DNA from: an uncultured Gammaproteobacteria bacterium
Lineage (GTDB): Bacteria; Patescibacteriota; Microgenomatia; JALYQM01
Length of the DNA stretch: 64,000 nt
NCBI GenBank assembly: GCA_964403585.1
Contig: CAYOFQ010000002.1
Span: forward strand, 5,667 to 69,666
Reading direction: 5' to 3'
Shown here: positions 2,157-55,455 of the stretch, in pieces
How the letters are laid out: each line of letters starts with the position of its first letter
Position numbering within the stretch: the first letter of the stretch is position 1
The notes under the pieces: model-generated
The model's input: only the letters and a program-made list of their open reading frames with translations
The model's database searches: none
Told to the model about the DNA's origin: nothing
Program-made: the position numbers and the translations under genes

Positions 2157-3326
2157 CTAAACATCTAGTTCCCCTCTTAACAACTTAGGCAGCAAGATGT
2201 CTTTCAATGAAATTAATTCATTATTTTCAACTTCTAACAGTTGAATCTTATGTTCTATACCTCCTGCAATTATTTCAAACTTTGAGATTAACTCTTCTGG
2301 AGGTAATATAACCTTTATATTTTCTAATTCACTTTTAGTAACAGCAGCAAAGATAGAACCAGATCCAAAACTATCTTCTTTTTTAAATACATTTCTTAGT
2401 TGGTAAAACAGAAAACTCTGGCTACCATTTTTATTTCGAACAGATGCTAGGCCTCGACCTAAGGACAACTCTCTATCAGCAATGTTCAGTCTTCCAACAG
2501 GGGCACGCACACTCAATAAAATATCTCCTTTTGCAGCTTTTCTCGGATTATTTGTACAGAAAATTTTATGAGTAGGATAACGCCGTCCAAAATAAGTAAC
2601 TCCCTGATGAAAAGGAAGACCCTTACCTTCTATGTTATAGTCTTCAGATGGTGGAGATTGACCCATTATAATATCTGCTACTTCAGCAAGAGTAGTTAAC
2701 CTCCACGTAGACTCAGACAAGACCTTATTACCTTGAATCATAAACCATTCTTTATAAACTAATTGGGCAACAAGTTCCAGCTTTTCTACAATTTTATTAT
2801 TTAGTACGATTTTTTCATCTAGTCTTGAAATTATCGAAGATATTTTAGACTGTATTCTCAAATTTTCAGGATACTTAATCAATATTTGCCTCAACTCAGC
2901 TTGCCTTATTCCTTCTGCAGCAGTTCCGCTCAATCTCTTAAGTAATTCATGTCTCCCCTCAGCTCCCTGAAGGTAATAGTATAAGTACTTAGGATCCAAT
3001 TTAGTTTTATCAGTCCTTAGTCCAAATAGCCTTTGGCTTAAAACAAGATCTTTTTTTTCAGCTAAATAATATATCTCACCTAAAGGCGCTTCTGATGTTA
3101 ACAAAATATCCCCTGCTTCAAGCTTTTCAGGCATCCACTTCTCATATAAATCCGAACTAACATACCTTATATCATCATGATTGACTATTCTACCTGTCTT
3201 AATATTTTTAGCAGATATCGCTGGAATGCCTTTACTCGACCAATCACCTCCTAATTTTTTAGGAGTTAAACCTCTATGATCAATTATCAATTCCATTAGA
3301 TTATCAAGTCTATCTTGTTTCCACAT
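2157..3326 (-). CDS. hsdS: Type I restriction-modification specificity subunit HsdS
   Basis: 389 aa with two target-recognition-domain halves. C-terminal conserved helix ISLKDILLPKLLRGELDV is typical of HsdS. It is positioned between hsdM and hsdR on the same strand. Confidence 0.85.
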   Translation of the reverse strand: MWKQDRLDNLMELIIDHRGLTPKKLGGDWSSKGIPAISAKNIKTGRIVNHDDIRYVSSDLYEKWMPEKLEAGDILLTSEAPLGEIYYLAEKKDLVLSQRLFGLRTDKTKLDPKYLYYYLQGAEGRHELLKRLSGTAAEGIRQAELRQILIKYPENLRIQSKISSIISRLDEKIVLNNKIVEKLELVAQLVYKEWFMIQGNKVLSESTWRLTTLAEVADIIMGQSPPSEDYNIEGKGLPFHQGVTYFGRRYPTHKIFCTNNPRKAAKGDILLSVRAPVGRLNIADRELSLGRGLASVRNKNGSQSFLFYQLRNVFKKEDSFGSGSIFAAVTKSELENIKVILPPEELISKFEIIAGGIEHKIQLLEVENNELISLKDILLPKLLRGELDV

Positions 3327-3401
3327 ATACTAAACCCTTATTAAATTTGACTTATATCCACATTTTGCATATAATTAACATATAACGATGACTGGATAAG
3401 C

Positions 3402-3914
3402 CTAAGGTTTCGACCGACCGCTGATGCCAGTCGTTTTTTTGACATATTTTAAGCTCATTTTGAGCTTATCCAACGTTACTATATATTGAGCATACTTTCT
3501 CAATAAACTGGAATAATGCCTATTAGGCGTAATTACCTTCAAAAGCTTATTCTTACCAACTAAATGCTCAACTAAACAGTGAAAATCTCCATCATTAGAT
3601 ACAATTATCGCCTTTTCATAGTTTTCAAGCTCAATCATAGTATGTAAAACAAGCTCAGCATCAACATTCCCCTTCACAACTCCAGTTTTCAAAGTTAAGG
3701 TAGGCTTCAAAATGACTATATACCCCATCTCTTGTAAATGTGTATAAAGCTTTTCATTATCAGCTTTAAATCCGATAAAAACAAATGCTTTTTCGATCTT
3801 ATATTTATTTTTTAGATACTGACGAAACTTTCGCCAATCCAATTCCCAACCTTCAGATCGAACTCCTAAATTGAGATTTTGGCTATCTATAAATGCATAA
3901 TTCTCTTTACTCAT
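3402..3914 (-). CDS. NYN/LabA-like (PIN-fold) predicted nuclease inserted in the R-M operon
   Basis: 170 aa. Motifs AFIDSQNL (N-terminal Asp) and DAELVLHTM...IIVSNDGDFHCLVEHL match the NYN-domain acidic core. Its start overlaps the hsdM stop (3911-3914). Confidence 0.65.
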   Translation of the reverse strand: MSKENYAFIDSQNLNLGVRSEGWELDWRKFRQYLKNKYKIEKAFVFIGFKADNEKLYTHLQEMGYIVILKPTLTLKTGVVKGNVDAELVLHTMIELENYEKAIIVSNDGDFHCLVEHLVGKNKLLKVITPNRHYSSLLRKYAQYIVTLDKLKMSLKYVKKTTGISGRSKP

Positions 3915-18404: not shown

Positions 18405-18681
18405 CTCCCCGACTAGGATTCGAACCTAGAACCTTCTCGTTACATGAACCCCACAAGTTTCCTAGTGGCATGGACTATCTCATCACCATACTTAAAAAGC
18501 ACAGGTGTCAGGCGTATAGTCTCTGAACCTTCAATACGCAAGAAGCGTAAAGCTTGGCTGCGGATTACCATAATCTTTCGATCGTAGGCTTCCCGACAGT
18601 TAACCCAATTTTCACTTCAGGATTTCTCCAGAAGGCTGCATCAATCTACAGCGAGCCGCTCTACCGTTGAGCTATCAGGGA
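18405..18681 (-). tRNA. tRNA-Asn(GUU) interrupted by a group I intron (exons 18648-18681 and 18405-18442)
   Basis: 5' half UCCCUGA-UA-GCUCAACGGUAGAGC-G-GCUCG-CUGU. 3' half UAACGAGA-AGGUU-CUAGGUUCGAAUCCUAG-UCGGGGA-G. The acceptor stems pair (UCCCUGA/UCGGGGA). Spliced anticodon loop is CUGUUAA, class I variable loop, discriminator G73, no encoded CCA. Confidence 0.65.
18443..18647 (-). ncRNA. Group I intron (IC3-like, Azoarcus/cyanobacterial tRNA-intron type), 205 nt, no ORF
   Basis: 5' exon ends in U. IGS GCAG pairs with the exon CUGU. P2 is CUUC-U-GGA-GAAA-UCC-U-GAAG. The core shows extended identity to the Azoarcus pre-tRNA-Ile intron as recalled from memory (UAUGGUAAUCCGCAGCCAAGCUU...UUGAAGGUUCAGAGACUAUACGCC...CACCU). 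The intron ends with omega-G (CAUG|UAACGAG). Confidence 0.65.
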
Positions 18682-18684
18682 ATA

Positions 18685-19401
18685 TTAACTTTTACCGTGC
18701 TTTAAGCACGATGCATCCTGAATTCTATCACCAAAAACAGCAGAAATCCACCCCATAATTTGACGCTGTATATCTGAGCAACTGAACCTAATAGAAAACA
18801 CTCCATAAGAGTGTATATTTTTTCTAATTTTCTGTGAATCAATCTTATTTTTTACTATATAAGTTTTATGGAATTTAGCCTTAGAAATACCCGTTAGTTG
18901 AGACCAAAATTCCCTTGCAGCTTCTATATCTAAACCTTCATGAATCCAAAGTGCACCTCTAAATCTATCTTCAGGGACCTTCGCAAATTGCCGTAACCAG
19001 CCCATCATAAACTCGATTATCCGAGGATCAGAATTTGCGATACCTCCCTTCCCATCGGCTTTATCACCTTCACCCAAATAAATAGCGATACCTGCCAACA
19101 ACCTGTCCCTTTCAGAAATCGCACCTAGTTCATTTTTTGCATGTAAAAATATTTGCTGAGTTTTATTAATTCTGTAGGAACGTTTATTTTCAGCTGCAGC
19201 AAGAGAACCCTTTTTTTGACCGTTAATTTTTGTAGTAATAAGCCGGTTTCTCTGTTCATCAGTTAATACTATATCCCTACACCAACGACTTAATGTGTCT
19301 TTAGAAACTTTAACCTGTAATAAAATCTCATTATAAGAAAGACCTTTACTTCTTAATTTCTGAGCAATAATTCGTTCTTCCAATTTCCCTGAATAACCCA
19401 T
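18685..19401 (-). CDS. HTH-domain protein, possible LAGLIDADG-like endonuclease fold (uncertain)
   Basis: 238 aa. N-terminal HTH (RSKGLSYNEILLQVKVSKDTLSRWCRDI). Segment ERDRLLAGIAIYLGEGDKADGKG loosely resembles a LAGLIDADG motif. It ends 4 nt before the intron-containing tRNA. Confidence 0.3.
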   Translation of the reverse strand: MGYSGKLEERIIAQKLRSKGLSYNEILLQVKVSKDTLSRWCRDIVLTDEQRNRLITTKINGQKKGSLAAAENKRSYRINKTQQIFLHAKNELGAISERDRLLAGIAIYLGEGDKADGKGGIANSDPRIIEFMMGWLRQFAKVPEDRFRGALWIHEGLDIEAAREFWSQLTGISKAKFHKTYIVKNKIDSQKIRKNIHSYGVFSIRFSCSDIQRQIMGWISAVFGDRIQDASCLKHGKS

Positions 19402-33103: not shown

Positions 33104-33121
33104 TTCCTTATTCTATTTGAG

Positions 33122-33208
33122 CGGAGAGGGAGGGATTCGAACCCTCGATACCCTTGCGAGTATATTGTCTTTCCAGGACAACGCACTAGTCCACTATGCG
33201 ACCTCTCC
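33122..33208 (-). tRNA. tRNA-Ser(GGA)
   Basis: GGAGAGG acceptor, anticodon arm UUGUC-CUGGAAA-GACAA, long variable arm UAUAC...GUAUC, T-arm GAGGGUUCGAAUCCCUC, discriminator G. Confidence 0.85.
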
Positions 33209-33342
33209 TTAAAATAACTGGGTTGTATCAATAACTATCTGCTTTGATACAAGCCAGGTATTTTAACTGTGGGGTCGTCCTGTAAGGGCGACCTCTCCAA
33301 ACATGCTCCTTATTCTAACACAGATTCAACTGAAAATCTCAC

Positions 33343-33825
33343 CTAGTACAACTTTCGCTCATAAGTAATAACCGGCGTTGTGGAAATAAAAACTTCCGGT
33401 ACACCCTCTTGCCCTAAATTCTCCCCCACCCGCCGTACTCCGTCTATCGTGTGGTCTACAATCCGTCGAGCGACATATTTACTTGTCTGCCACGGATGAG
33501 CATCAAAACAACATGCTAACTCGTAAGCTCTATGTACCAATCGCCCGGTCTTACTCTCGGCGTTTTTACCATAGAAAGCAGTCATACCCCAGGTAAACGC
33601 TGCGCCACCAACATTAATTGCCATTGCCCCTATAGTCGCTGTCCTGGCATCAACCAGATTAAGTGCTGCAGCACCCGCCCAAACCGCATTTTGACCATAT
33701 CCGACTAAACGGACAGGGACATGTGCTGCAAAAAGTATTTTACGCTCATGGCGTTGAAGAAATCCTGCAACCCGTTCTTTTACAGGAGTAAGGAGGTCTA
33801 AATTGTCACGATACTGCTCTAACAT
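33343..33825 (-). CDS. Hypothetical protein
   Basis: 160-aa ORF, no recognised domain. Confidence 0.4.
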   Translation of the reverse strand: MLEQYRDNLDLLTPVKERVAGFLQRHERKILFAAHVPVRLVGYGQNAVWAGAAALNLVDARTATIGAMAINVGGAAFTWGMTAFYGKNAESKTGRLVHRAYELACCFDAHPWQTSKYVARRIVDHTIDGVRRVGENLGQEGVPEVFISTTPVITYERKLY

Positions 33826-33925
33826 AAGGGTAAATTATACCATCCCGGAAAACAAATACGAAGTTCGACAATCCTGACAAAATTGTCATGGACTCCGTTC
33901 CGCATACACATAACAATAGCAGCAT

Positions 33926-36397
33926 ATGCACCAACTCTTCAAACCCCGCATTATAATCTATTGTGTTCTTTTTGCTTCAATGTTGACCATGCCAACACTG
34001 ATTCACCAACCACCGACCGCTGATGCCCACGTCATCAAGTACCCGATTATCCTAATCCCCGGCTTTGCCGGGACTACCCTGAGTACCTCCGACCTGGGTA
34101 CGGTATACGAAGGTGACGACGGGCACGGCGGTATATTTGAACACCACTACCTCGCCAATGAGCAAGTTTGGATTAATACATCCGAAGCAGCCAACCCGGG
34201 TGAAGACGATTATTTTGACGCGCTAAAGATGAAGCCTGACGGCCAAACGCCAGAATCTAATCTATATCCCCGGTTTCCCGTACCAGAAGTCTACCAACCC
34301 ACACTCGAATACTTCCGAACCAAAGGCTATCGTGACGGGAGAGACCTTTTTACTTTTGCCTACGATTGGCGCAGAGATATACGTATAAACAATGACCAGC
34401 TCGACGACCTCATCACCTATGCCAAACAAAGAACCGGACTACCGAAAGTTAATATAATAGCTCATTCCATGGGAGGACTGTTAATTAGACACTATATTAC
34501 CGACGCAACCAAAGCACAAAACATCTTCCGCGCAGTGACACTTGGCACACCGTATCTTGGTTCTCCCGAATTTCTCAAGTGGATGGGCTATGGAGGGTGC
34601 CTGACCAATCTCAACACAGGAGCTCCGTGTATTGGCATACCCGCTTCGGAAACCAAAGATATCGTCCAAAATTTCATTTCCGGCTACCAACTACTTCCTT
34701 CTCAAAAATATTATGATTTTTACGACGGGCACGACGCACAACATCCACGACCGTTTAAAGACACACGAGATATAGATACAAATGGAATCACTGGCGAACT
34801 AAGCTATCTCCAAGTAAAGGAATTATTAACAAACACTGGATATAATACCGCTCTTTTTACACCTGCCGAAGAACTGCATCAGCAAATAGATACAACTCTC
34901 CCAGTAATACTTGGTGGACAATTAACACTCATCGTAGGATCAGGTCAGGCAACTATTGGGCAAATTGAAGAACGTAATGTAGTGAACGTAGGGAATATTG
35001 CAATCAATAAACGCGACATTCACATGATCAACGGCGACGGCTCGGTACCACTTTTTAGCGCATCATTAGACGACAGCACCAACGGTCACCTGCTAACCGG
35101 GAATGCCCAAGTATTTTACACTAAACAAAACCACAATCAACTCCCTCAGGACAGTAATACCTTGGGATTGATTAATCATATATTTACGGGCAATCCCGGA
35201 GACACATACACCAATCCCGCTATTACGACACAACCGTTCCCACTCAATGGATGGTTAGTCTCAGTACATTCTCCGGTAACGCTGGACTTATATGATGAAA
35301 ATGGACTACTCACCGGAACCTCAAGCACAAACATAGAAACTGCTATTCCAAACACGTATTACGACACGGTAGACGACACTAAATATATTTGGGTAGATAA
35401 CATTTCCAACTACTACCTAAAATTCAAAGCCACAAGCGCAGGATCATTTGACCTAAAAATTCGTGAATACAACAACAATCAAATAGTCCAAGCCATCTTA
35501 TATAAAGATATTCCACTAACACAAAACACCATTGTTCAAAGTAGACTTAATACAGATAATTTCATGATACCCATACTGCAGATAGATGCCGACGGCGACG
35601 GAACATGGGAGAGTCTCGTTGATCCGACCGAAACCACTCATGAACACATTGACAACCTCCCACCCACCACTCAGATCACCGTTTCCGGCGAGCAAGGGAA
35701 TCAAGGTTGGTATAAAGACACTGCAACCATCCAATTAGCCGCTGAAGACAACCAAGGAGGCTCAGGAGGGGTAAAAATACACTACTCGGTGAATCAGGAA
35801 CCGATGAAGCAGTACAGCACTCCTTTTCAAATTTCCTCAGAGGGAGTCTCTACTTTAACCTACTATTCCGAAGATCAGGTCGGCAATACAGAAACGCTGA
35901 AAGAGCAACAAATAAAAATCGATCGTACCGCACCTGAAGTACAGGTGATGTTTATCAGCAATCAACTGGTCACGGAAATTGTAGGTAAAGACAATCTAAC
36001 CCCTGTGTCTACAGTGAAAAATACTGACCAAGTAGTAGTAACCGACGAGGCAGGTAATACCACCTCCATAAAACATCAAGCTAAAATAAACAAAGATCAA
36101 ACTAAAATCGAATTAACCACCATCTCATATAATGGCCAAGTATTCTCCCTGACTCCTAATCGATACGAATCCACGTATGAGACACAAAGCGGTACCGATC
36201 CCCTCAAGGAACTAGAACAAAAAATCAGTATTAAAGGTGAAGAAAAACTAACCGCACACTACTCTCAAAAGAAATACAAGACAGTTATTAAAGATAAAAA
36301 CCGCCAAGACAAAAAACAAAGCTATGAGGTGGAAGGCCTACAAACTATTATTCTCGGCACCAATAAAGGAGTAGTTTATACTAGTCTAAACATATGA
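33926..36397 (+). CDS. Secreted alpha/beta-hydrolase lipase/acyltransferase (LCAT/PGAP1-like) with C-terminal Ig-like (chitobiase C-terminal-like) domains
   Basis: 823 aa. Signal peptide, PIILIPGFAGT oxyanion region, nucleophile elbow AHSMGG (GxSxG), and C-terminal repeats TTQITVSGEQGNQGWYKD...VKIHYSVNQEP. Confidence 0.7.
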   Translation: MHQLFKPRIIIYCVLFASMLTMPTLIHQPPTADAHVIKYPIILIPGFAGTTLSTSDLGTVYEGDDGHGGIFEHHYLANEQVWINTSEAANPGEDDYFDALKMKPDGQTPESNLYPRFPVPEVYQPTLEYFRTKGYRDGRDLFTFAYDWRRDIRINNDQLDDLITYAKQRTGLPKVNIIAHSMGGLLIRHYITDATKAQNIFRAVTLGTPYLGSPEFLKWMGYGGCLTNLNTGAPCIGIPASETKDIVQNFISGYQLLPSQKYYDFYDGHDAQHPRPFKDTRDIDTNGITGELSYLQVKELLTNTGYNTALFTPAEELHQQIDTTLPVILGGQLTLIVGSGQATIGQIEERNVVNVGNIAINKRDIHMINGDGSVPLFSASLDDSTNGHLLTGNAQVFYTKQNHNQLPQDSNTLGLINHIFTGNPGDTYTNPAITTQPFPLNGWLVSVHSPVTLDLYDENGLLTGTSSTNIETAIPNTYYDTVDDTKYIWVDNISNYYLKFKATSAGSFDLKIREYNNNQIVQAILYKDIPLTQNTIVQSRLNTDNFMIPILQIDADGDGTWESLVDPTETTHEHIDNLPPTTQITVSGEQGNQGWYKDTATIQLAAEDNQGGSGGVKIHYSVNQEPMKQYSTPFQISSEGVSTLTYYSEDQVGNTETLKEQQIKIDRTAPEVQVMFISNQLVTEIVGKDNLTPVSTVKNTDQVVVTDEAGNTTSIKHQAKINKDQTKIELTTISYNGQVFSLTPNRYESTYETQSGTDPLKELEQKISIKGEEKLTAHYSQKKYKTVIKDKNRQDKKQSYEVEGLQTIILGTNKGVVYTSLNI

Positions 36398-36651
36398 AAG
36401 TTACCAAGCATCTTCCAATTGTATTCGCAAGTATTGTAATCTGGCTCTTTTCACTTGTAACTCAAGCATACATAGATATGGCGGTATTTAAACACGCACC
36501 GGTCTTCCCTGCTCCCACATGTTCAGGAACCGGCTACCCTATTGCCTTGTGCAGCAGCAACGGCACCATAACCATTATCGTATGCCTTTTAAATATTACT
36601 CTTATTTTTGGAATACTTTCCCTTATTCGGTGGATCTATAATACGAAATAA
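36394..36651 (+). CDS. Small membrane protein (85 aa)
   Basis: ATGA overlap with the upstream gene. Two hydrophobic helices. Confidence 0.4.
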   Translation: MKVTKHLPIVFASIVIWLFSLVTQAYIDMAVFKHAPVFPAPTCSGTGYPIALCSSNGTITIIVCLLNITLIFGILSLIRWIYNTK

Positions 36652-36654
36652 CAG

Positions 36655-36738
36655 CGGAGAGGGTGGGATTCGAACCCACGAGGCTCATCACCTAGACGTG
36701 TTCGAGACGTCCGCACTCGGCCACTATGCGACCTCTCC
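36655..36738 (-). tRNA. tRNA-Ser(CGA)
   Basis: GGAGAGG acceptor, anticodon arm GACGU-CUCGAAC-ACGUC, long variable arm, T-arm GUGGGUUCGAAUCCCAC. The 3' half is identical to tRNA-Ser(UGA) at 41983. Confidence 0.85.
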
Positions 36739-36837
36739 TTAATATATCTTGTTCATACCTACTGGAGCCTGATAGGCATGAACAAGATATATTATCGTGA
36801 GCGTCGTCCTGTAGGGACGACCTCTAGCCCATTCTAG

Positions 36838-36910
36838 TGCACTCGACAGGAGTCGAACCTGTAACCGTCAGCTCCGCAAGCTGATGCTCTATCCATTAAG
36901 CTACGAGTGC
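36838..36910 (-). tRNA. tRNA-Arg (anticodon read as GCG)
   Basis: GCACUCG acceptor, D-arm GCUUAAUGGAUAGAGC, anticodon arm UCAGC-UUGCGGA-GCUGA, T-arm ACAGGUUCGACUCCUGU, discriminator A. The GCG anticodon assignment is tentative. Confidence 0.65.
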
Positions 36911-36981
36911 CCATCTTTCATGCCTAAGCACAAAACTACCGTCATATTATAACGCACAAAGCCATTTCGCACAATTGAAGA

Positions 36982-37530
36982 TTATTGAGCGGTTTTCTCA
37001 AGAGGAAACTTCTTCGACACCCATTCTGCAGCCCGATCCACCGCTGAAGTATCCTTGCTGTCTTTCAGGATCAACCGTGTTCCAATTACCTGCTCGATTT
37101 GCTCCCGGGTAGCCGGCTCTCGCAACAATAAGTATATTGACCCGGGGAGACTGGCTTTAGTTCGCGCCACCATAATATCATTACCCCAGCGTTTCTCGAA
37201 CCAGTAGTACAGAAGATCCGGCCAGGCATAAAAGTGATTCCCGTTCTTAATTCCTGTCGTAAAAATTTCATTATCAATATCGTCAGGCGGAACGGTATAC
37301 AATACGTACACCAGAAAAACAAACGCAATCACTACGGCAATGACCAGGAACTCCCGCATAAAAAACAGGATCACAATAGATAAAATTGCCATAATAGTCA
37401 CTGTAGTGAAAAAATCTTTATCACGCTTTTTAAATGGGCGTGAAGGAGATCGCCATTGTAAAAGTAACTTTTTTTCTTCCTCAGGAACAATAGCTACCGT
37501 TGGTTGAGAGGAAACAGAAGAAGTGTCCAT
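36982..37530 (-). CDS. Membrane protein, unknown function
   Basis: 182 aa with two adjacent TM helices (AILSIVILFFMREFLVIAVVIAFVFLVYVLY). Confidence 0.45.
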   Translation of the reverse strand: MDTSSVSSQPTVAIVPEEEKKLLLQWRSPSRPFKKRDKDFFTTVTIMAILSIVILFFMREFLVIAVVIAFVFLVYVLYTVPPDDIDNEIFTTGIKNGNHFYAWPDLLYYWFEKRWGNDIMVARTKASLPGSIYLLLREPATREQIEQVIGTRLILKDSKDTSAVDRAAEWVSKKFPLEKTAQ

Positions 37531-37595
37531 AAGCGAATAAAAAGGATTATACTGAACACAGAATATCAGATGTGCGTAATAATGCGCAAGAGCTA

Positions 37596-39419
37596 TTATC
37601 CAAAAGTAAATGCAAAAACCTGAACACGATCATCTAAAAACTCTAATTCAATAGTCGCATCCGTCCATTCGGCAAAGGTAGCCAAATTGTATAACTTGGC
37701 AGCTTTCACCAGAAGTGAATTATCCCGAACGTCTTTACTGACATTTTTCTTATTAGTCCCCGTAACAGTGATCTTCACTCGCTTCCCATTTACCAATACT
37801 GTCTTAGGTTGTCCGTTCCCCTGACAATATTCACCTGTACAAACAAGCGAATCATCACCGGACGCAATAGGTACACTCACCCCGTCCGACATTACTAAAT
37901 TAATCTCTTTACCAATAAAATGGTAACGGAGTGTACTCCCCTTCTCTGCTTCAGCGTATTCAGGAGTTATTTTCCATCTCCCTCCTAAACTATACTGACT
38001 TGCCGACAAATCGTATCGCAATGAATAAGTGGAAAATGAATCCCGAACAACGCTTTCTTTTGACCTAAATTGCTCTTCATCTAATCGTGCGTAACCAACA
38101 TATGTCTCTGGACTAATATCCCGATCTACCACAACACCCGCTTCCTTAGTAAGTTCATAATCTGCCTGCACACCCCGCTCTGCCAATAATAACTGGATCG
38201 CCCGTTCCATATTCTCATAATCACCTTCTCCAAAATGATAGCGCCGGATTCTTCCCTGTGCATCAATCAGGTAATGTGCCGGCCAGTAATGGTTTTCATA
38301 CGCCCGCCAGGTACCAAAGTCATTATCCATCACCACCGGATACGTCAAACCAAAATCAGCAATTGCTTTCTCTACATTTTCCTGAACCTTTTCAAACGCA
38401 AATTCAGGCGAATGCACACCAATAACGGTGAAACCTTTATCTTTATATTTCTTATGCCAATCCTCAATATACGGCAATGTACGAATACAGTTAATACAGC
38501 TGTAGGTCCAAAAATCCACTAAAACAACGTTTCCCTGTAATGCTTTAAGTGTAAAAGGTTCCGGAGTATTCAACCATTTGGTTGGCTTTACAAACTCGGG
38601 AGCCGGACCGACATCTCTCAACAGAGTAGCGCTATCAAAACGGATATCACGTTGTGGAGTTCCCGGATTCTCACGAAGCTGCTGTAATTGACCCACAACC
38701 TCGCTACTCGATTCATACGAAGCTAAGGGGGTTAATACCCAACTCGGTAAACGCTGTACAATAAAAGTCTGAAAACGGCGGTCAATATTGAACACCAAAG
38801 CTAAAGCTGCCAGGATCATTACCACGCCAAAGAATTGTTGGATTCGCCCGGAATATTTATTAAGCAAACGGAAGCGACTTAATATCTCTTTACCACCATA
38901 CGCAATCATCAACAGCACCGAAGCGGATCCGCAAACATATGCAAAGGTTATCAAAACTGCCTCAATAGTTACTGACTGAGTCGCCACCAAAGTAATAACC
39001 GCCGCCAGTATTGGCCCTGCGCAGGGAACCCACAATAAACCGACTGTCAATCCAATCACTACCCCACCCCAAAATCCCGTCCGCTGTCCGACACTTCCCA
39101 CCTGCCCGCTCAACCGGGAAAAAACCCGCTCCGTGAACTGTGAAAAATACGGTACCACCATGGATAAACCAAACATAAATATTAGAACAATGGAAAGATT
39201 CCGCAGCAAATCCGGCGGCAAATTAAAACGATCTACTAATGCGGTTAAACCCAATGTAAAAAACGTAAAGCTGAAAATAAGTCCGAGGATAACCCCCAAC
39301 GGACGACGCGAACCACCAACAACAGTTGAAGATAGAACAATCGGTAAAATTGGCAATACACACGGTGTTAAAGCAGTAACAAATCCGGAAACAAAGGCAA
39401 AAATGAGAAGAAGTGCCAT
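37596..39419 (-). CDS. CcdA/DsbD-family cytochrome-c-biogenesis/disulfide-reductase membrane domain fused to TlpA-like thioredoxin domain
   Basis: 607 aa. N-terminal TM core ALTPCVLPILPIVLSS (DsbD/CcdA Cys). Thioredoxin fold VVLVDFWTYSCINCIRTLPYI (CxxC). C-terminal about 200-aa beta-rich domain. Confidence 0.7.
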   Translation of the reverse strand: MALLLIFAFVSGFVTALTPCVLPILPIVLSSTVVGGSRRPLGVILGLIFSFTFFTLGLTALVDRFNLPPDLLRNLSIVLIFMFGLSMVVPYFSQFTERVFSRLSGQVGSVGQRTGFWGGVVIGLTVGLLWVPCAGPILAAVITLVATQSVTIEAVLITFAYVCGSASVLLMIAYGGKEILSRFRLLNKYSGRIQQFFGVVMILAALALVFNIDRRFQTFIVQRLPSWVLTPLASYESSSEVVGQLQQLRENPGTPQRDIRFDSATLLRDVGPAPEFVKPTKWLNTPEPFTLKALQGNVVLVDFWTYSCINCIRTLPYIEDWHKKYKDKGFTVIGVHSPEFAFEKVQENVEKAIADFGLTYPVVMDNDFGTWRAYENHYWPAHYLIDAQGRIRRYHFGEGDYENMERAIQLLLAERGVQADYELTKEAGVVVDRDISPETYVGYARLDEEQFRSKESVVRDSFSTYSLRYDLSASQYSLGGRWKITPEYAEAEKGSTLRYHFIGKEINLVMSDGVSVPIASGDDSLVCTGEYCQGNGQPKTVLVNGKRVKITVTGTNKKNVSKDVRDNSLLVKAAKLYNLATFAEWTDATIELEFLDDRVQVFAFTFG

Positions 39420-39518
39420 ACTTCAGTATAGCATAGTGCGGAGAGGATTGGGCGATATTTGAACTTTTCTAAGTCAATCCTCTTGTGCATAAAACAGAAA
39501 AATTCGTAAGATATTATT

Positions 39519-40343
39519 ATGGCTAAGAAAAAGGGTGTCCAAAAATATTTTATACACCTAATTATAGCAGTTATATTAATAACCGGACTATATATAACTA
39601 TCTTCCTAAACCTCATCACTCCTCGTCATTCTAATAATATTAGACCTCAAAAAAATATAATAAATACGCCTACTTCTTCGTTCAAGGCAACTATTCTACC
39701 TATACCGACTCATACACCATATCCAATCAAATATAAAACTTATATAAACAATAAATCTGGGTTTTCTATAAAATATCCAGAAGTTACAGAAGCACTTTGG
39801 ACAGGTTGTGACGTTAATTCACAATCTTCAGGGATGACTAGCGGAATAATTCCAACAAAGTTAATCGAAGATCCGTCTAATGACACTATTTACCTCACCG
39901 TCACAAAATACGCCCATGTAGATATGATAAAAACCGCAAACAGTATGGTTAATGATCCTACATCGTGTAAAGTTGAGGAGGTAAATTTAAACCTAGTAAA
40001 AAATGGATATACTCAAAAACCATACGGACCAAATTATCCTAAACATACAAAGTTCATCTATAAGCAGATCAATAACGATAAAGACTTATCAGCTTTCGCT
40101 CAAGAGGTATATGGGGACAAATGTAATAACATAACAAAAATTCCATCTAACGAACTTAAGGGTATTTACAATATAGAATTTAATAATAGAAACCCAGATA
40201 CCGGATGCTGGATAGGAGCTGTTATCCGCTTTATATATTCACCTAAAAACAGGTTAGCAGTTACTTGGATCTTAGGACATGAACCACCATATCAAATATA
40301 CGGGCAAGTCCACGAGCTAGAAGTTAACTTTTTACAACATTAA
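39519..40343 (+). CDS. Hypothetical secreted/membrane-anchored protein
   Basis: 274 aa with an N-terminal TM anchor. No recognised domain. Confidence 0.45.
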   Translation: MAKKKGVQKYFIHLIIAVILITGLYITIFLNLITPRHSNNIRPQKNIINTPTSSFKATILPIPTHTPYPIKYKTYINNKSGFSIKYPEVTEALWTGCDVNSQSSGMTSGIIPTKLIEDPSNDTIYLTVTKYAHVDMIKTANSMVNDPTSCKVEEVNLNLVKNGYTQKPYGPNYPKHTKFIYKQINNDKDLSAFAQEVYGDKCNNITKIPSNELKGIYNIEFNNRNPDTGCWIGAVIRFIYSPKNRLAVTWILGHEPPYQIYGQVHELEVNFLQH

Positions 40344-40400
40344 CCCTACATTTACAGATTCTGTAAAGACCTCTTCTGTTATAAACTTGAAGACTACTGG

Positions 40401-40491
40401 CGGAGAGGGAGGGATTCGAACCCTCGATACGGGTTTAGGCCCATATAATTTCTTAGCAGGAAATCGCTTTCGTCCACTCAGCCACCTCTCC
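40401..40491 (-). tRNA. tRNA-Ser(GCU)
   Basis: GGAGAGG acceptor, anticodon arm AUUUC-CUGCUAA-GAAAU, long variable arm, T-arm GAGGGUUCGAAUCCCUC. Confidence 0.85.
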
Positions 40492-40552
40492 AAAGGTAAC
40501 CTGGAAACTTGAGGAAGTATATCACAAAACAGGCAGAAAATTCTCCCCCATC

Positions 40553-41380
40553 TTACGCAACCCGGTGACGAAGCCGTTTGAACTTGAACAAAAACCAGAT
40601 AAAAGCCACATAATAGACCATAATTGCCAGTTTCATCACACTGAATTCACGGTCAATCCCTACCAAACCCTTAAGCAAGTGTCCCACCATCGTTTCATCA
40701 TCAGGCAGGAAATTCAGTGGTATCGGCACAATACTGGACAAGTGAATATCACCATAAACCTCAAACAACTCCCCCAGTCCCCGCTGCACCAGAGCAGCAC
40801 CCGTTACCACAATTAAAGCCTCTGTGGCCTTAAAAATTTTACGGATCGGGAATTTGGTATACAGGAAGAATATAGCCAACCCAATCACGCTTGCACCGGC
40901 AAATCCCAAAAGCAATCCGACAAAATTCTGGAAAAAGACCGAAAAAAGCGCCGTACTGGCAGTAAATAAAGCTATCTCCGCCCCTTCACGAATCACCATA
41001 AAAAAGACCGTAAAAAAGAGCGAAAAATCAAACGCGTCCGGTCGAACACGTCCGGTTACCGTCGAAATCTGGTCACTATCCTTCTTTTTGAGGCGACCAT
41101 GTAAAGACAAAACTAAATAAACAATAAAGAACCCGGAGAAGGTCATTAAGTATCCCTCAAGCATATCCGCATTGCGTTCAGTCAACACCCCTCTGGCGAG
41201 ATCTCCAAACACATAGGTAAGACTGGAAAGAACTAATGAAAAGATCATTCCCACCCCGGCTGCCCAATAAATCTCACGCTCTTTTTTTAATTCAAGTTTC
41301 CGCGAAATCCCAAGGAAAACACCGGTAATCAGAAAGGCTTCTAAAAATTCACGAAAAGCAACAAGTGCAATAATTAACAT
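40553..41380 (-). CDS. FTR1-family high-affinity iron permease
   Basis: 275 aa with 7 TM and two RExxE motifs (FREFLEAFL and IREGAEIAL). Confidence 0.75.
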   Translation of the reverse strand: MLIIALVAFREFLEAFLITGVFLGISRKLELKKEREIYWAAGVGMIFSLVLSSLTYVFGDLARGVLTERNADMLEGYLMTFSGFFIVYLVLSLHGRLKKKDSDQISTVTGRVRPDAFDFSLFFTVFFMVIREGAEIALFTASTALFSVFFQNFVGLLLGFAGASVIGLAIFFLYTKFPIRKIFKATEALIVVTGAALVQRGLGELFEVYGDIHLSSIVPIPLNFLPDDETMVGHLLKGLVGIDREFSVMKLAIMVYYVAFIWFLFKFKRLRHRVA

Positions 41381-41452
41381 AGATCAACACTATACTAAAA
41401 ATAATATTTTGTGTATTTACAAATAAAACCCGAAGTAGTATAGTAACCTTGC

Positions 41453-42019
41453 ATGAGAAATACTCGTAAAACGCCCAACACTACTTGTGCTTACTGCCAA
41501 ATTCCTTTCTATAAAAAACCTTCAGAAATAAAAAAATATAAGCACACCTTTTGTTCGACTAAATGCTATGGAAAGTTTAGTAGCCACCCCTTAACTTGCA
41601 TTATCTGCGGAAAAGAATACCCAAGAAAATTTCACAAAAAAACCTGTAGCCGCAGCTGCGCTAATAAGCACCGAAGTGGAATAAAATATAAAGTAAATCG
41701 ACCAAGAGACAAAGTCGCTTACTCAACAGGGCTTAAAATACGCTTATTATCTGAAAGAGGCTCATCATGCCAAAGATGTAATTTCCCAAAAACAGAAATT
41801 TTAATTGTTCACCATAAAGACAGGGATAGGACCAACAACAACCTGAAAAATTTGGAGCTTATTTGCCCAAACTGTCATGCTGAAGAACACTATCTAGAAA
41901 AAAACTGGCTAAAAAGATATAATGTTCAGGAATTTAAAGAAAAGCTCCTTTTGAAAGAATCTGCTTACTTTATCTATCGTACGGAGAGGTCGCCTAGTGG
42001 TTTATGGCAGAAGTCTTGA
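41453..42019 (+). CDS. HNH endonuclease with N-terminal Cys-rich zinc ribbon
   Basis: HNH core ILIVHHKDRDRTNNNLKNLELICPNCHAEEH, plus multiple CxxC pairs N-terminally. The ORF's last ~12 codons run into the tRNA-Ser(UGA) gene, so the true C-terminus may be slightly shorter. Confidence 0.65.
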   Translation: MRNTRKTPNTTCAYCQIPFYKKPSEIKKYKHTFCSTKCYGKFSSHPLTCIICGKEYPRKFHKKTCSRSCANKHRSGIKYKVNRPRDKVAYSTGLKIRLLSERGSSCQRCNFPKTEILIVHHKDRDRTNNNLKNLELICPNCHAEEHYLEKNWLKRYNVQEFKEKLLLKESAYFIYRTERSPSGLWQKS

Positions 42020-42069
42020 AAACTTCCAGGTGATGAGCCTCGTGGGTTCGAATCCCACCCTCTCCGCCA
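41983..42069 (+). tRNA. tRNA-Ser(UGA), CCA encoded
   Basis: GGAGAGG acceptor, anticodon arm GAAGU-CUUGAAA-ACUUC, long variable arm, T-arm GUGGGUUCGAAUCCCAC, 3' CCA present. Confidence 0.85.
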
Positions 42070-54998: not shown

Positions 54999-55021
54999 AA
55001 AAACATCAAAAGAAAATGATG
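54999..55021 (-). terminator. Intrinsic terminator immediately 3' of ssrA (CAUCA-uuuucuuu-UGAUG-UUUUU)
   Basis: 5-bp stem plus a U5 run on the minus strand. A second overlapping hairpin gives it bidirectional character. Confidence 0.5.
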
Positions 55022-55455
55022 TGGAGATGCCGATCTATGAAATCGGGTCTGGAATCTGTAATTAAAAACATCTACATAGCATAGTCGGTACTTATATCTC
55101 GTACCACAACGATCCTACCGACAGGAGAAGTGATACAAAGGTCAAAGTCTTAAAGGATTACAGCGACCACCCCGAATCCTCGCATACAATCTTTGTTTAC
55201 GCCCTACTCCGCTCGATTGTAAAATCAGAATAGAACGTCCATTGTTTAGCTAAAGAAAAGTTTAGCCAAATGCAGGATAGCTAACGCCTGCTACAGCGTT
55301 ACCCAAGCCGAAGTTTGGGAACTTTGCAGCGATTTTGTCAGCTATTGATGTAGAAGAATCTGCATCTATATTTTAGTCCCGTTTTTACGACTCTTGAGAC
55401 CATCGTCGGCTATGCAGTTTTTAAAGAGCACATCCCATCGAAACAACACATCCCC
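55022..55455 (-). ncRNA. ssrA: tmRNA (SsrA)
   Basis: 5' end GGGGAUGUGUUGUUUCGAUGGGAUG matches the canonical GGGGcUGauucuggaUUCGAcGGGAu. 3' end ...CCGAU-UUCAUAG-AUCGG-CAUCUCC-A forms a T-arm and an acceptor strand pairing with the 5' GGGGAUG. A candidate tag ORF begins after the UAG at ...AAUAGCUGAC... and ends at the UAA inside hairpin GCUAAAcuuuucUUUAGC. It is divergent from smpB. Confidence 0.6.

Follow-up and report, generated by a model that had tools for sequence, protein, structure and literature searches.

Group I introns inserted between positions 35 and 36 of the tRNA-Asn(GUU) genes of Patescibacteria were described by Nakagawa et al. (mSystems 2026, PMC13011429; bioRxiv July 2025), whose survey of 95 complete Patescibacteria genomes found 35/36 introns in 15 tRNA-Asn(GUU) and 3 tRNA-Asp(GUC) genes. 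According to that study, intron lengths range from 184 to 894 nt, four of the surveyed tRNA-Asn introns contain HNH genes, intron-less tRNA-Asn duplicates are rare in the surveyed genomes, and the split tRNAs are overlooked or mislabelled by tRNAscan-SE, ARAGORN and tFind. Precise self-splicing in vitro was shown for one tRNA-Asn and one tRNA-Asp intron, with the product sequenced, and mutation of the terminal guanosine of the intron (omega-G) to C stops exon ligation (PMC13011429). According to PMC13011429, no 35/36 intron was on record until tFind (Williams 2020, bioRxiv 10.1101/2020.01.27.920355) detected this site, and its category 'Asn.4Ug' is cited there. A second kind of relevant system is collaborative, or trans, homing, which is described for F-CphI and a cyanophage psbA intron (PMC6083498) and for T4 mobE with I-TevIII and the nrdB intron (PMC2790892), and which is reviewed in PMC3984707. 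Here we compare with these systems a split tRNA-Asn(GUU) gene, and the open reading frame (ORF) that precedes it, in a 64-kb stretch of contig CAYOFQ010000002.1 (the window; all coordinates are positions in it unless a locus is named), where the split gene is read on the minus strand from 18681 to 18405.

The window locus is a further member of the described, experimentally validated Patescibacteria tRNA-Asn/tRNA-Asp 35/36 family. It shares with that family the tRNA, the anticodon, the insertion site, the U at position -1 and omega-G, its length falls within the published range, and the intron is homologous. Like most of the family, it is ORF-less, and standard tRNA finders fail on both alike. 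Unlike the published survey, which covered complete genomes only, the window copy lies on a 74-kb contig of a metagenome-assembled genome (MAG). The original prediction, made from the letters of the window, named no tRNA-Asn example among bacterial group I introns; that novelty does not stand, because this host tRNA is already published with in vitro splicing at 35/36 (PMC13011429).

The split tRNA-Asn(GUU) gene and its intron

The 5' exon (34 nt, 18648-18681, minus strand), which reads UCCCUGA-UA-GCUC-AACGGUA-GAGC-G-GCUCG-CUGU from 18681 to 18648, comprises the acceptor 5' strand, the D-arm, the anticodon-stem 5' strand and loop bases C32 to U35, its last base being the U at -1. The 3' exon (38 nt, 18405-18442, minus strand), which reads UAA-CGAGA-AGGUU-CUAGG-UUCGAAU-CCUAG-UCGGGGA-G from 18442 to 18405, continues with U36, A37 and A38, the anticodon-stem 3' strand, a 5-nt variable loop, the T-arm GGUUCGAAUCC, the acceptor 3' strand and the discriminator G73, and the gene does not encode CCA. 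The two acceptor strands, UCCCUGA (18681-18675) and UCGGGGA (18412-18406), form seven pairs, one of them U-G. Between the exons, tRNA positions 35 and 36 are separated by a group I intron of 205 nt (18443-18647, minus strand) with omega-G at 18443, supported by Rfam RF00028, ARAGORN and covariation; no sense-strand ORF of at least 50 aa was found within these 205 nt.

When introns were allowed, ARAGORN reported tRNA-Asn(gtt) i(35,205), that is, an intron of 205 nt after position 35, and the joined 72-mer forms a canonical cloverleaf with discriminator G73; neither default ARAGORN nor the Rfam tRNA model called the split gene. Eight candidate boundaries within the anticodon loop were tried, and U at -1 occurs together with G at omega only at 35/36, where joining produces the anticodon loop CUGUUAA. 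The spliced 72-nt sequence is identical to uninterrupted tRNA-Asn genes of related loci at 61/72 and 57/72 positions. The original prediction had proposed a tRNA-Asn(GUU) in which an ORF-less group I intron of this size separates U35 from U36; its coordinates and lengths proved exact, and the acceptor halves it named pair where it had placed them.

Rfam RF00028 (Intron_gpI) matched over its full length (model positions 1-253) at 18657-18451, with 79.7 bits, above the gathering score of 50 (E = 1.2e-18). On the minus strand, P1 (18635-18652) pairs the exon sequence GCUGU (18652-18648) with the guide GCAGC (18639-18635) across an 8-nt loop, leaving a U-G wobble at the 5' splice site. P2 is a hairpin of eight pairs with a GAAA tetraloop (18615-18634). 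It is followed by the 5' strand of P3, UUGGG (18608-18604), and the P4-P5 domain (together 18558-18608), and by the P6 region (18528-18557), which was placed from the Rfam alignment, varies in length among homologues and lies outside the covariation test, the alignment being poor there. The segment at 18508-18525 holds the 5' strand of P7, CAGAGACUA with a bulged A, which belongs to the guanosine-binding helix, then J7/3 and the 3' strand of P3, CCUGA (18512-18508). The segment at 18472-18507 consists of the P8 hairpin (18507-18484), J8/7 and the 3' strand of P7, AUGAGAUAGUCC (18483-18472), and P9 is a hairpin of six pairs, again with a GAAA tetraloop (18451-18468). The spacing from P7 to the 3' strand of P3 is 3 nt (UAC), and the helix inventory from Rfam and RNAalifold contains no P7.1/P7.2 or P5abc helices in the window intron.

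To this fold we applied a covariation set of 37 aligned, non-redundant homologous introns, with 42 pairs in P1-P5 and P7-P9; RNAalifold recovered P1, P2, P3, P4, P5, P8 and P9, and P7 was added afterwards as a pseudoknot. Bases were paired in 96.8% of the cells of the 42 tested pairs, as compared with 37-46% when the 3' partners were slid. Compensatory changes on both sides occurred in 27 of the 42 pairs, and none of 500 shuffles (0/500) reached any observed measure. Every pair of P2 and P9 shows compensatory changes and all four pairs of P8 covary; P3 is 100% paired, with three covarying pairs, and P4 is 99.5% paired. The P1 pairing CUGU/GCAG is unchanged in 37/37 introns, the P7 pairs are invariant in 36-37 of the 37, and the omega-G column is invariant. 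The intron has the fold of a ribozyme, and its evolution has been strongly purifying and compensatory. All that had been read from the letters is borne out here: a P1 with an exon-terminal U on the guide GCAG, a P2 with a GAAA cap, a conserved core and a G at the intron end.

The sequence at 18681-18405 is very probably a functional tRNA-Asn(GUU) gene of a bacterium of the candidate phyla radiation (CPR) type, with a group I intron at 35/36 that is predicted to splice itself. The CPR affinity of the host is suggested by a 20-mer from the intron core, found mostly in Patescibacteria MAGs, and by the named relatives of the neighbouring ORF, which come from Daviesbacteria, Roizmanbacteria and the 'Patescibacteria group'. 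Two points weigh against this interpretation. The window contains no second tRNA-Asn, but this count covers 64 kb only, and an intron-less copy may lie elsewhere in the genome. Additionally, the mature tRNA has a G27-A43 mismatch atop the anticodon stem, which is a small irregularity.

Following established group I chemistry and the published assays on relatives, the precursor would fold with the exon end ...GCUGU on the guide GCAGC in P1, holding U35 in the U-G wobble, and an exogenous guanosine bound in the P7 pocket would attack the phosphate 3' of U35. The terminal G of the intron (18443) would next take the same pocket, and the freed 3'-OH of U35 would attack beyond this G, joining U35 to U36. 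The product would be a 72-nt tRNA with the loop CUGUUAA, to which CCA would be added afterwards.

A hexamer, (A/T)AATAT, stands immediately before position 1 of tRNA-Asn in the window (18682-18687) and at seven of the related loci, which we designate by L numbers (L001, L005, L008, L010, L012, L021 and L078). It is present at loci with and without the upstream ORF, and could serve in processing or recognition, or be inherited from a common ancestor.

Homologous introns and the subgroup label

The intron-core 20-mer was found in nine species-representative genomes. Eight of the nine loci gave a group I match above threshold, and wherever flanks were readable they corresponded to a tRNA-Asn split at the same site. 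About 60 further loci with a homologous intron at this site were retrieved via the neighbouring ORF. The genomes that share the 20-mer include the complete Berkelbacteria genome CP011213 (L009), whose tRNA-Asn intron, of 568 nt, encodes a 107-aa ORF of the HNH kind with the motif CANCHREIH. As in the published survey, ARAGORN labels many of these homologues wrongly, as Thr, Gln, Asp or Tyr.

Three variants can be told apart in the intron alignment: the window type; a majority type, which departs from it in the sequence of P3-P4 and P6-P7; and a type with an additional hairpin of 12 nt (GGUGAGUACACC) between P7 and the 3' strand of P3, in which P9 is missing from most members. The last of these is represented by seven loci (L012, L015, L035, L036, L046, L062 and L086), and its extra hairpin occupies the place of P7.1 in IA introns. 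Window-type introns also appear on contigs binned outside the CPR: in split tRNA-Asn genes of a Woesearchaeota archaeon (L001) and of Pseudomonadales (L004) and, with an HNH gene and cut by the contig end, in Rhodospirillales (L002). An rpoD-like C-terminus lies directly upstream of the split tRNA-Asn on the nominally archaeal MAG. Mis-binning is likelier than transfer for these three bins, and was suspected in a similar case by Williams 2020 (bioRxiv 10.1101/2020.01.27.920355).

Queried with the complete split gene, BLASTN found among 50,697 phage records a sole match, of 67 nt (82.6%) to the P3-P5 region, at 718282-718349 of LR756501.1 and LR756503.1, which are unannotated 735-kb records of 'uncultured phage'. 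A huge phage may thus carry a group I intron related to this one.

Classical IC3 tRNA introns are those of Azoarcus tRNA-Ile(CAU), cyanobacterial and plastid tRNA-Leu(UAA), tRNA-fMet and Agrobacterium tRNA-Arg, inserted at 33/34, 34/35 or 36/37. The window intron shares with the bacterial cases a compact core of about 200 nt running from P1 to P9, the absence of P5abc and GAAA loops on both P2 and P9, and its J6/7-P7-J7/3 and J8/7-P7' stretches look very similar to theirs; it differs in its insertion site, 35/36, in its host tRNA and in the probable phylum of its host. It is collinear with the Azoarcus intron, with 119 identical positions, a comparison that serves as a lead and not as a test. 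The architecture is thus IC3-like, with a compact core, P2 and P9 and no P2.1, P5abc or P7.1/7.2, and the IA hallmark, P7.1/P7.2 between P7 and the 3' strand of P3, is absent from the window intron. In contrast, the published subgroup covariance models assigned 25 of 28 introns at 35/36 to IA and no Patescibacteria tRNA intron to IC (PMC13011429), although the window intron has no hairpin between P7 and the 3' strand of P3. The extra 12-nt hairpin variant may be the cause of the published IA class. The conserved core seen in the original prediction stands; its IC3 label fits the architecture and conflicts with the model-based class.

An ORF family in front of tRNA genes

A free-standing ORF of 238 aa (18685-19401, minus strand) ends with its stop codon 3 nt before the tRNA. 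Its product has an N-terminal helix-turn-helix (HTH; residues ~6-57) and a probable LAGLIDADG-like C-terminal domain (residues ~97-226), and contains the motif LLAGIAIYLGEGDK and the core ..AGIALYAGEGDK.., the family motif being FIAGIALYAGEGDK. A conserved ORF directly upstream is not discussed in PMC13011429, in whose text 'free-standing' occurs 0 times. We found 284 close relatives (48-67% identity, ~231 aa), few of which carry a name, in most cases 'hypothetical protein'. In the 81 intact copies, position 111 is acidic without exception (81/81; 76 E and 5 D), and neither G112 nor K114 ever varies.

Pfam recognised only a weak HTH in the window protein, of the transposase/Hin type, and no curated LAGLIDADG profile matched it or 48 relatives, for which HTH families alone were reported; NCBIfam gave no match for the family. 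A single-sequence search of PDB sequences likewise returned 0 matches. When the family profile was compared with the whole PDB sequence set, the sole match was I-DmoI (E = 0.011), on its second LAGLIDADG motif, GLYVAEGDKT, with E111 and K114 standing opposite I-DmoI residues 117 and 120. I-DmoI is an archaeal LAGLIDADG endonuclease of an rRNA intron. An AlphaFold model built from 48 sequences was confident, with a mean predicted local distance difference test score (pLDDT) of 85.9, and Foldseek found nothing significant with it, the best hits being E = 4e-3 in the PDB (OmpA-like, low TM-scores) and E = 4e-2 among viral structures. Alignment of the family with I-CreI by hhalign gave a probability of 0.6%, and in the HTH region only.

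Together, these results suggest that the ORF product probably joins an N-terminal HTH to one divergent LAGLIDADG-like domain. The 'weak LAGLIDADG-like segment' of the original prediction thus gains moderate support from the I-DmoI profile match and the conserved acidic residue at 111, and is opposed by the failure of Pfam and Foldseek to detect such a domain. Where I-DmoI and the bacterial transcription factor WhiA have two LAGLIDADG domains, the ORF has one such domain, and its similarity to I-DmoI is marginal at the E value of 0.011. WhiA also combines an HTH with the LAGLIDADG fold, but its HTH is C-terminal, and it is not known to have the acidic residue that the ORF keeps.

The ORF subfamily is encoded at 83 loci, 76 of them scorable, which we also counted by lineage after collapsing at ~97% identity. 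At all 76 scorable loci (76/76), a tRNA-Asn(GUU) gene lies directly downstream on the same strand, separated by -77 to +41 nt except in two lineages with secondary insertions. The 35/36 intron is present at 70 of these loci and missing from 6, or present in 57 of 59 lineages; in the ORF tree, the two lineages without it fall within groups that carry it. The junction between ORF and tRNA is constant while the upstream neighbours vary, with rpoD 55-1785 nt away at 30 loci and absent within 2.5 kb at about 20. Conversely, split tRNA-Asn genes occur without the ORF at L001, L007, L008 and L009, and in the first two of these genomes rpoD is followed directly by the split gene. In many relatives the ORF reads into the tRNA, its stop being the TAG of U8-A9-G10 or a second TAG in the D-arm; because the stop codon lies within the tRNA, both would be carried on a single transcript.

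Searching 1.84 billion representative proteins, clustered at 50% identity, with the profile extended the family to a superfamily of 5,617 clusters at E <= 1e-3 (3,214 at E <= 1e-10), whose C-terminal domain is covered by no Pfam or NCBIfam model. Superfamily ORFs are present at loci L010, L012, L013, L015-L094 and L096-L102. Seven distant representatives all lie directly 5' of a same-strand tRNA gene, namely Glu(CUC) in two, Gln(UUG) in two, Met(CAU) in two and a split tRNA-Asn in one, and the tRNA-Glu, Gln and Met neighbours include intron-less genes. The ORF is free-standing, outside the intron, and associated with tRNA genes in general. That it might be tied specifically to the intron is ruled out by the two lineages at intron-less tRNA-Asn and by the distant relatives at intron-less tRNA-Glu, Gln and Met; its link with the intron is associative only, and its functional role putative.

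At L100, a tRNA with a CAU anticodon that resembles initiator tRNA-fMet (23-309) carries a 214-nt group I intron (Rfam 88.3 bits); it is followed by a superfamily ORF (392-1084), which overlaps an intact tRNA-Met(CAU) (1075-1150) by 10 nt.

A six-frame profile scan found no second superfamily copy in the window. Four tRNA-Ser genes (GGA, CGA, GCU and UGA) and a tRNA-Arg(GCG) gene lie within 9 kb at 33121-42069, none of them adjoined by a member of the ORF family. The window also contains a transfer-messenger RNA (tmRNA) at 55019-55455 (minus strand; Rfam 91.3 bits, cut-off 47), which was not called by ARAGORN; it measures 437 nt against a model of 374 positions and has a long unaligned insert in the region of the tag reading frame.

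Several related loci retain duplicated or decayed sequence around tRNA-Asn. At L078, the sister of an intron-less lineage, the complete tRNA-Asn 5' exon is present twice (340-373 and 1117-1150; 33/34 identical), flanking the ORF, and the upstream copy terminates at CTGT, exactly at the 35/36 intron site. This duplication looks like a footprint of break repair or recombination; that the ORF there was once intron-encoded is less likely. At L010, a duplicated tRNA-Asn 5' end (13 nt by BLAST) and an insert of ~130 nt (3697-3827) separate the ORF from the split tRNA, which is intact. At L077, an 83-aa GIY-YIG gene (3292-3543; Pfam 56.7 bits, cut-off 22.6) stands between the ORF and the split tRNA-Asn, with L084 alike; at both loci the gene is preceded by a degenerate tRNA 5' fragment, and its stop is the tRNA TAG at positions 8-10. 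At L005 (Levybacteria MFNZ01000040), the last ~21 codons of the ORF (..RKIMWWIYGLFSAKITSAL*) remain ~95 nt upstream of the split tRNA-Asn, downstream of an unrelated gene, so that a decayed ORF copy stands beside an intact, intron-bearing tRNA. Three putative nuclease families thus appear to occupy one tRNA locus: the LAGLIDADG-like ORF, GIY-YIG and intron-encoded HNH.

Possible roles of the ORF and comparison with known systems

For the ORF we favour, tentatively, a homing-endonuclease-like gene that targets tRNA genes, with a maturase or host factor as the main alternative. Free-standing as it is, it might encode a LAGLIDADG-type homing endonuclease that works as a homodimer and cleaves tRNA-Asn genes; the intron would interrupt or shield the target in the host copy, and ORF, tRNA and intron would spread jointly by double-strand-break repair ('collaborative homing'). 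This possibility draws on the match to I-DmoI, the only one among PDB sequences, and on the acidic residue 111 with the invariant G112 and K114 across the 81 copies. It is likewise consistent with the abutment of tRNA-Asn at every scorable locus and with the presence of the intron in nearly all ORF-bearing lineages, compared with 15 tRNA-Asn introns in 95 complete Patescibacteria genomes (PMC13011429). It would also fit the fixed tRNA junction amid shifting upstream context, and the footprints at L078, L010, L077/L084 and L005, with a GIY-YIG gene at the same position in L077. The DNA of the anticodon arm is presumably an inverted repeat with its dyad at about position 35, suited to a homodimeric enzyme, and precedents are offered by F-CphI and the psbA intron (PMC6083498) and by mobE and I-TevIII (PMC2790892).

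Against homing stand the negative results with Pfam, with Foldseek on PDB and viral structures, and with hhalign on I-CreI, and the nuclease activity and target site of the ORF protein are purely putative. Two lineages keep an intact ORF, acidic residue included, at an intron-less tRNA-Asn, and distant members of the family lie next to tRNA-Glu, Gln and Met genes that have no intron, which makes the intron dispensable for coexistence. None of the 81 copies is broken, and they are well conserved (48-67% identity), which would suit a host-useful (domesticated) gene at least as well as a selfish one. The enrichment of the intron is confounded by phylogeny, and duplication footprints are confined to 3 lineages. 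A wider form of the same idea, which we regard as equally doubtful, is that the superfamily of ~5,600 clusters consists of free-standing homing endonucleases with an HTH and a single LAGLIDADG-type motif, placed directly 5' of tRNA genes and targeting such genes, in which the DNA of the stems makes natural inverted repeats. In the tRNA-Asn subfamily, the intron, within ~1 nt of the anticodon-arm dyad, would protect the host copy from cleavage and be carried along with the nuclease gene.

LAGLIDADG proteins can also act as maturases. A less probable account, which we consider unlikely, is that the ORF encodes a LAGLIDADG-type maturase or another tRNA-linked host factor, co-transcribed with the pre-tRNA and assisting its splicing or maturation. 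One transcript is implied by the 3-nt distance to the tRNA and by the many relatives that stop inside it, and the strong purifying selection, with 81/81 copies intact and many invariant residues, would suit such a role. However, relatives of the intron self-splice in vitro without protein (PMC13011429), intron-bearing L001, L007, L008 and L009 have no ORF and L005 only a remnant, the family also precedes intron-less tRNAs, and the N-terminal HTH of the transposase/Hin type suggests DNA binding. Finally, it is highly improbable that the split gene is a decaying pseudogene or that its boundary has been misread, for example in a tRNA-Thr(UGU) with an intron at 33/34, a reading that annotation tools commonly give for this family: default ARAGORN and the Rfam tRNA model call nothing and ARAGORN mislabels many homologues, as in PMC13011429, but the 33/34 alternative has A at omega, the tRNA body and its discriminator G73 fit uninterrupted tRNA-Asn genes, the core helices are all intact and covary across the family, the window has no other tRNA-Asn, and the published sequenced splice products support 35/36 (PMC13011429).

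The locus adds one more essential tRNA that the standard finder overlooks through a 35/36 group I intron, which affects estimates of CPR genome completeness, a point already made in PMC13011429. The new lead is the neighbouring ORF family, which is very large, has no curated Pfam or NCBIfam profile and lies directly before a tRNA in all 76 close and 7 distant cases. If its members were tRNA-targeting homing endonucleases, this would contradict the published inference that the introns are largely immobile owing to missing endonuclease genes. The family would then be a class of mobile element not recognised before in the chromosomes of bacteria, and would provide a mechanism for the mobility and retention of ORF-less tRNA introns in streamlined Patescibacteria genomes.

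Free-standing nuclease genes among tRNA genes have a parallel in phage T4, whose SegB is reportedly a GIY-YIG homing endonuclease that is encoded within the T4 tRNA gene cluster and acts on it (PMC2330249). It comes from a phage and belongs to another family, and the activity of the genes described here is putative; the nearest counterpart is the GIY-YIG ORF of L077 and L084, which takes the 5' position at tRNA-Asn. From F-CphI and mobE the present system differs in its host, a probable CPR chromosome and not a phage, in its protein, which is probably LAGLIDADG-like and not HNH or Endo VII, in that its activity and target are putative, and in that the ORF family also stands beside intron-less tRNAs. 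As in those collaborative homing systems, a nuclease-like gene lies beside a gene with an ORF-less group I intron and, at L078, a duplication marks the insertion site.

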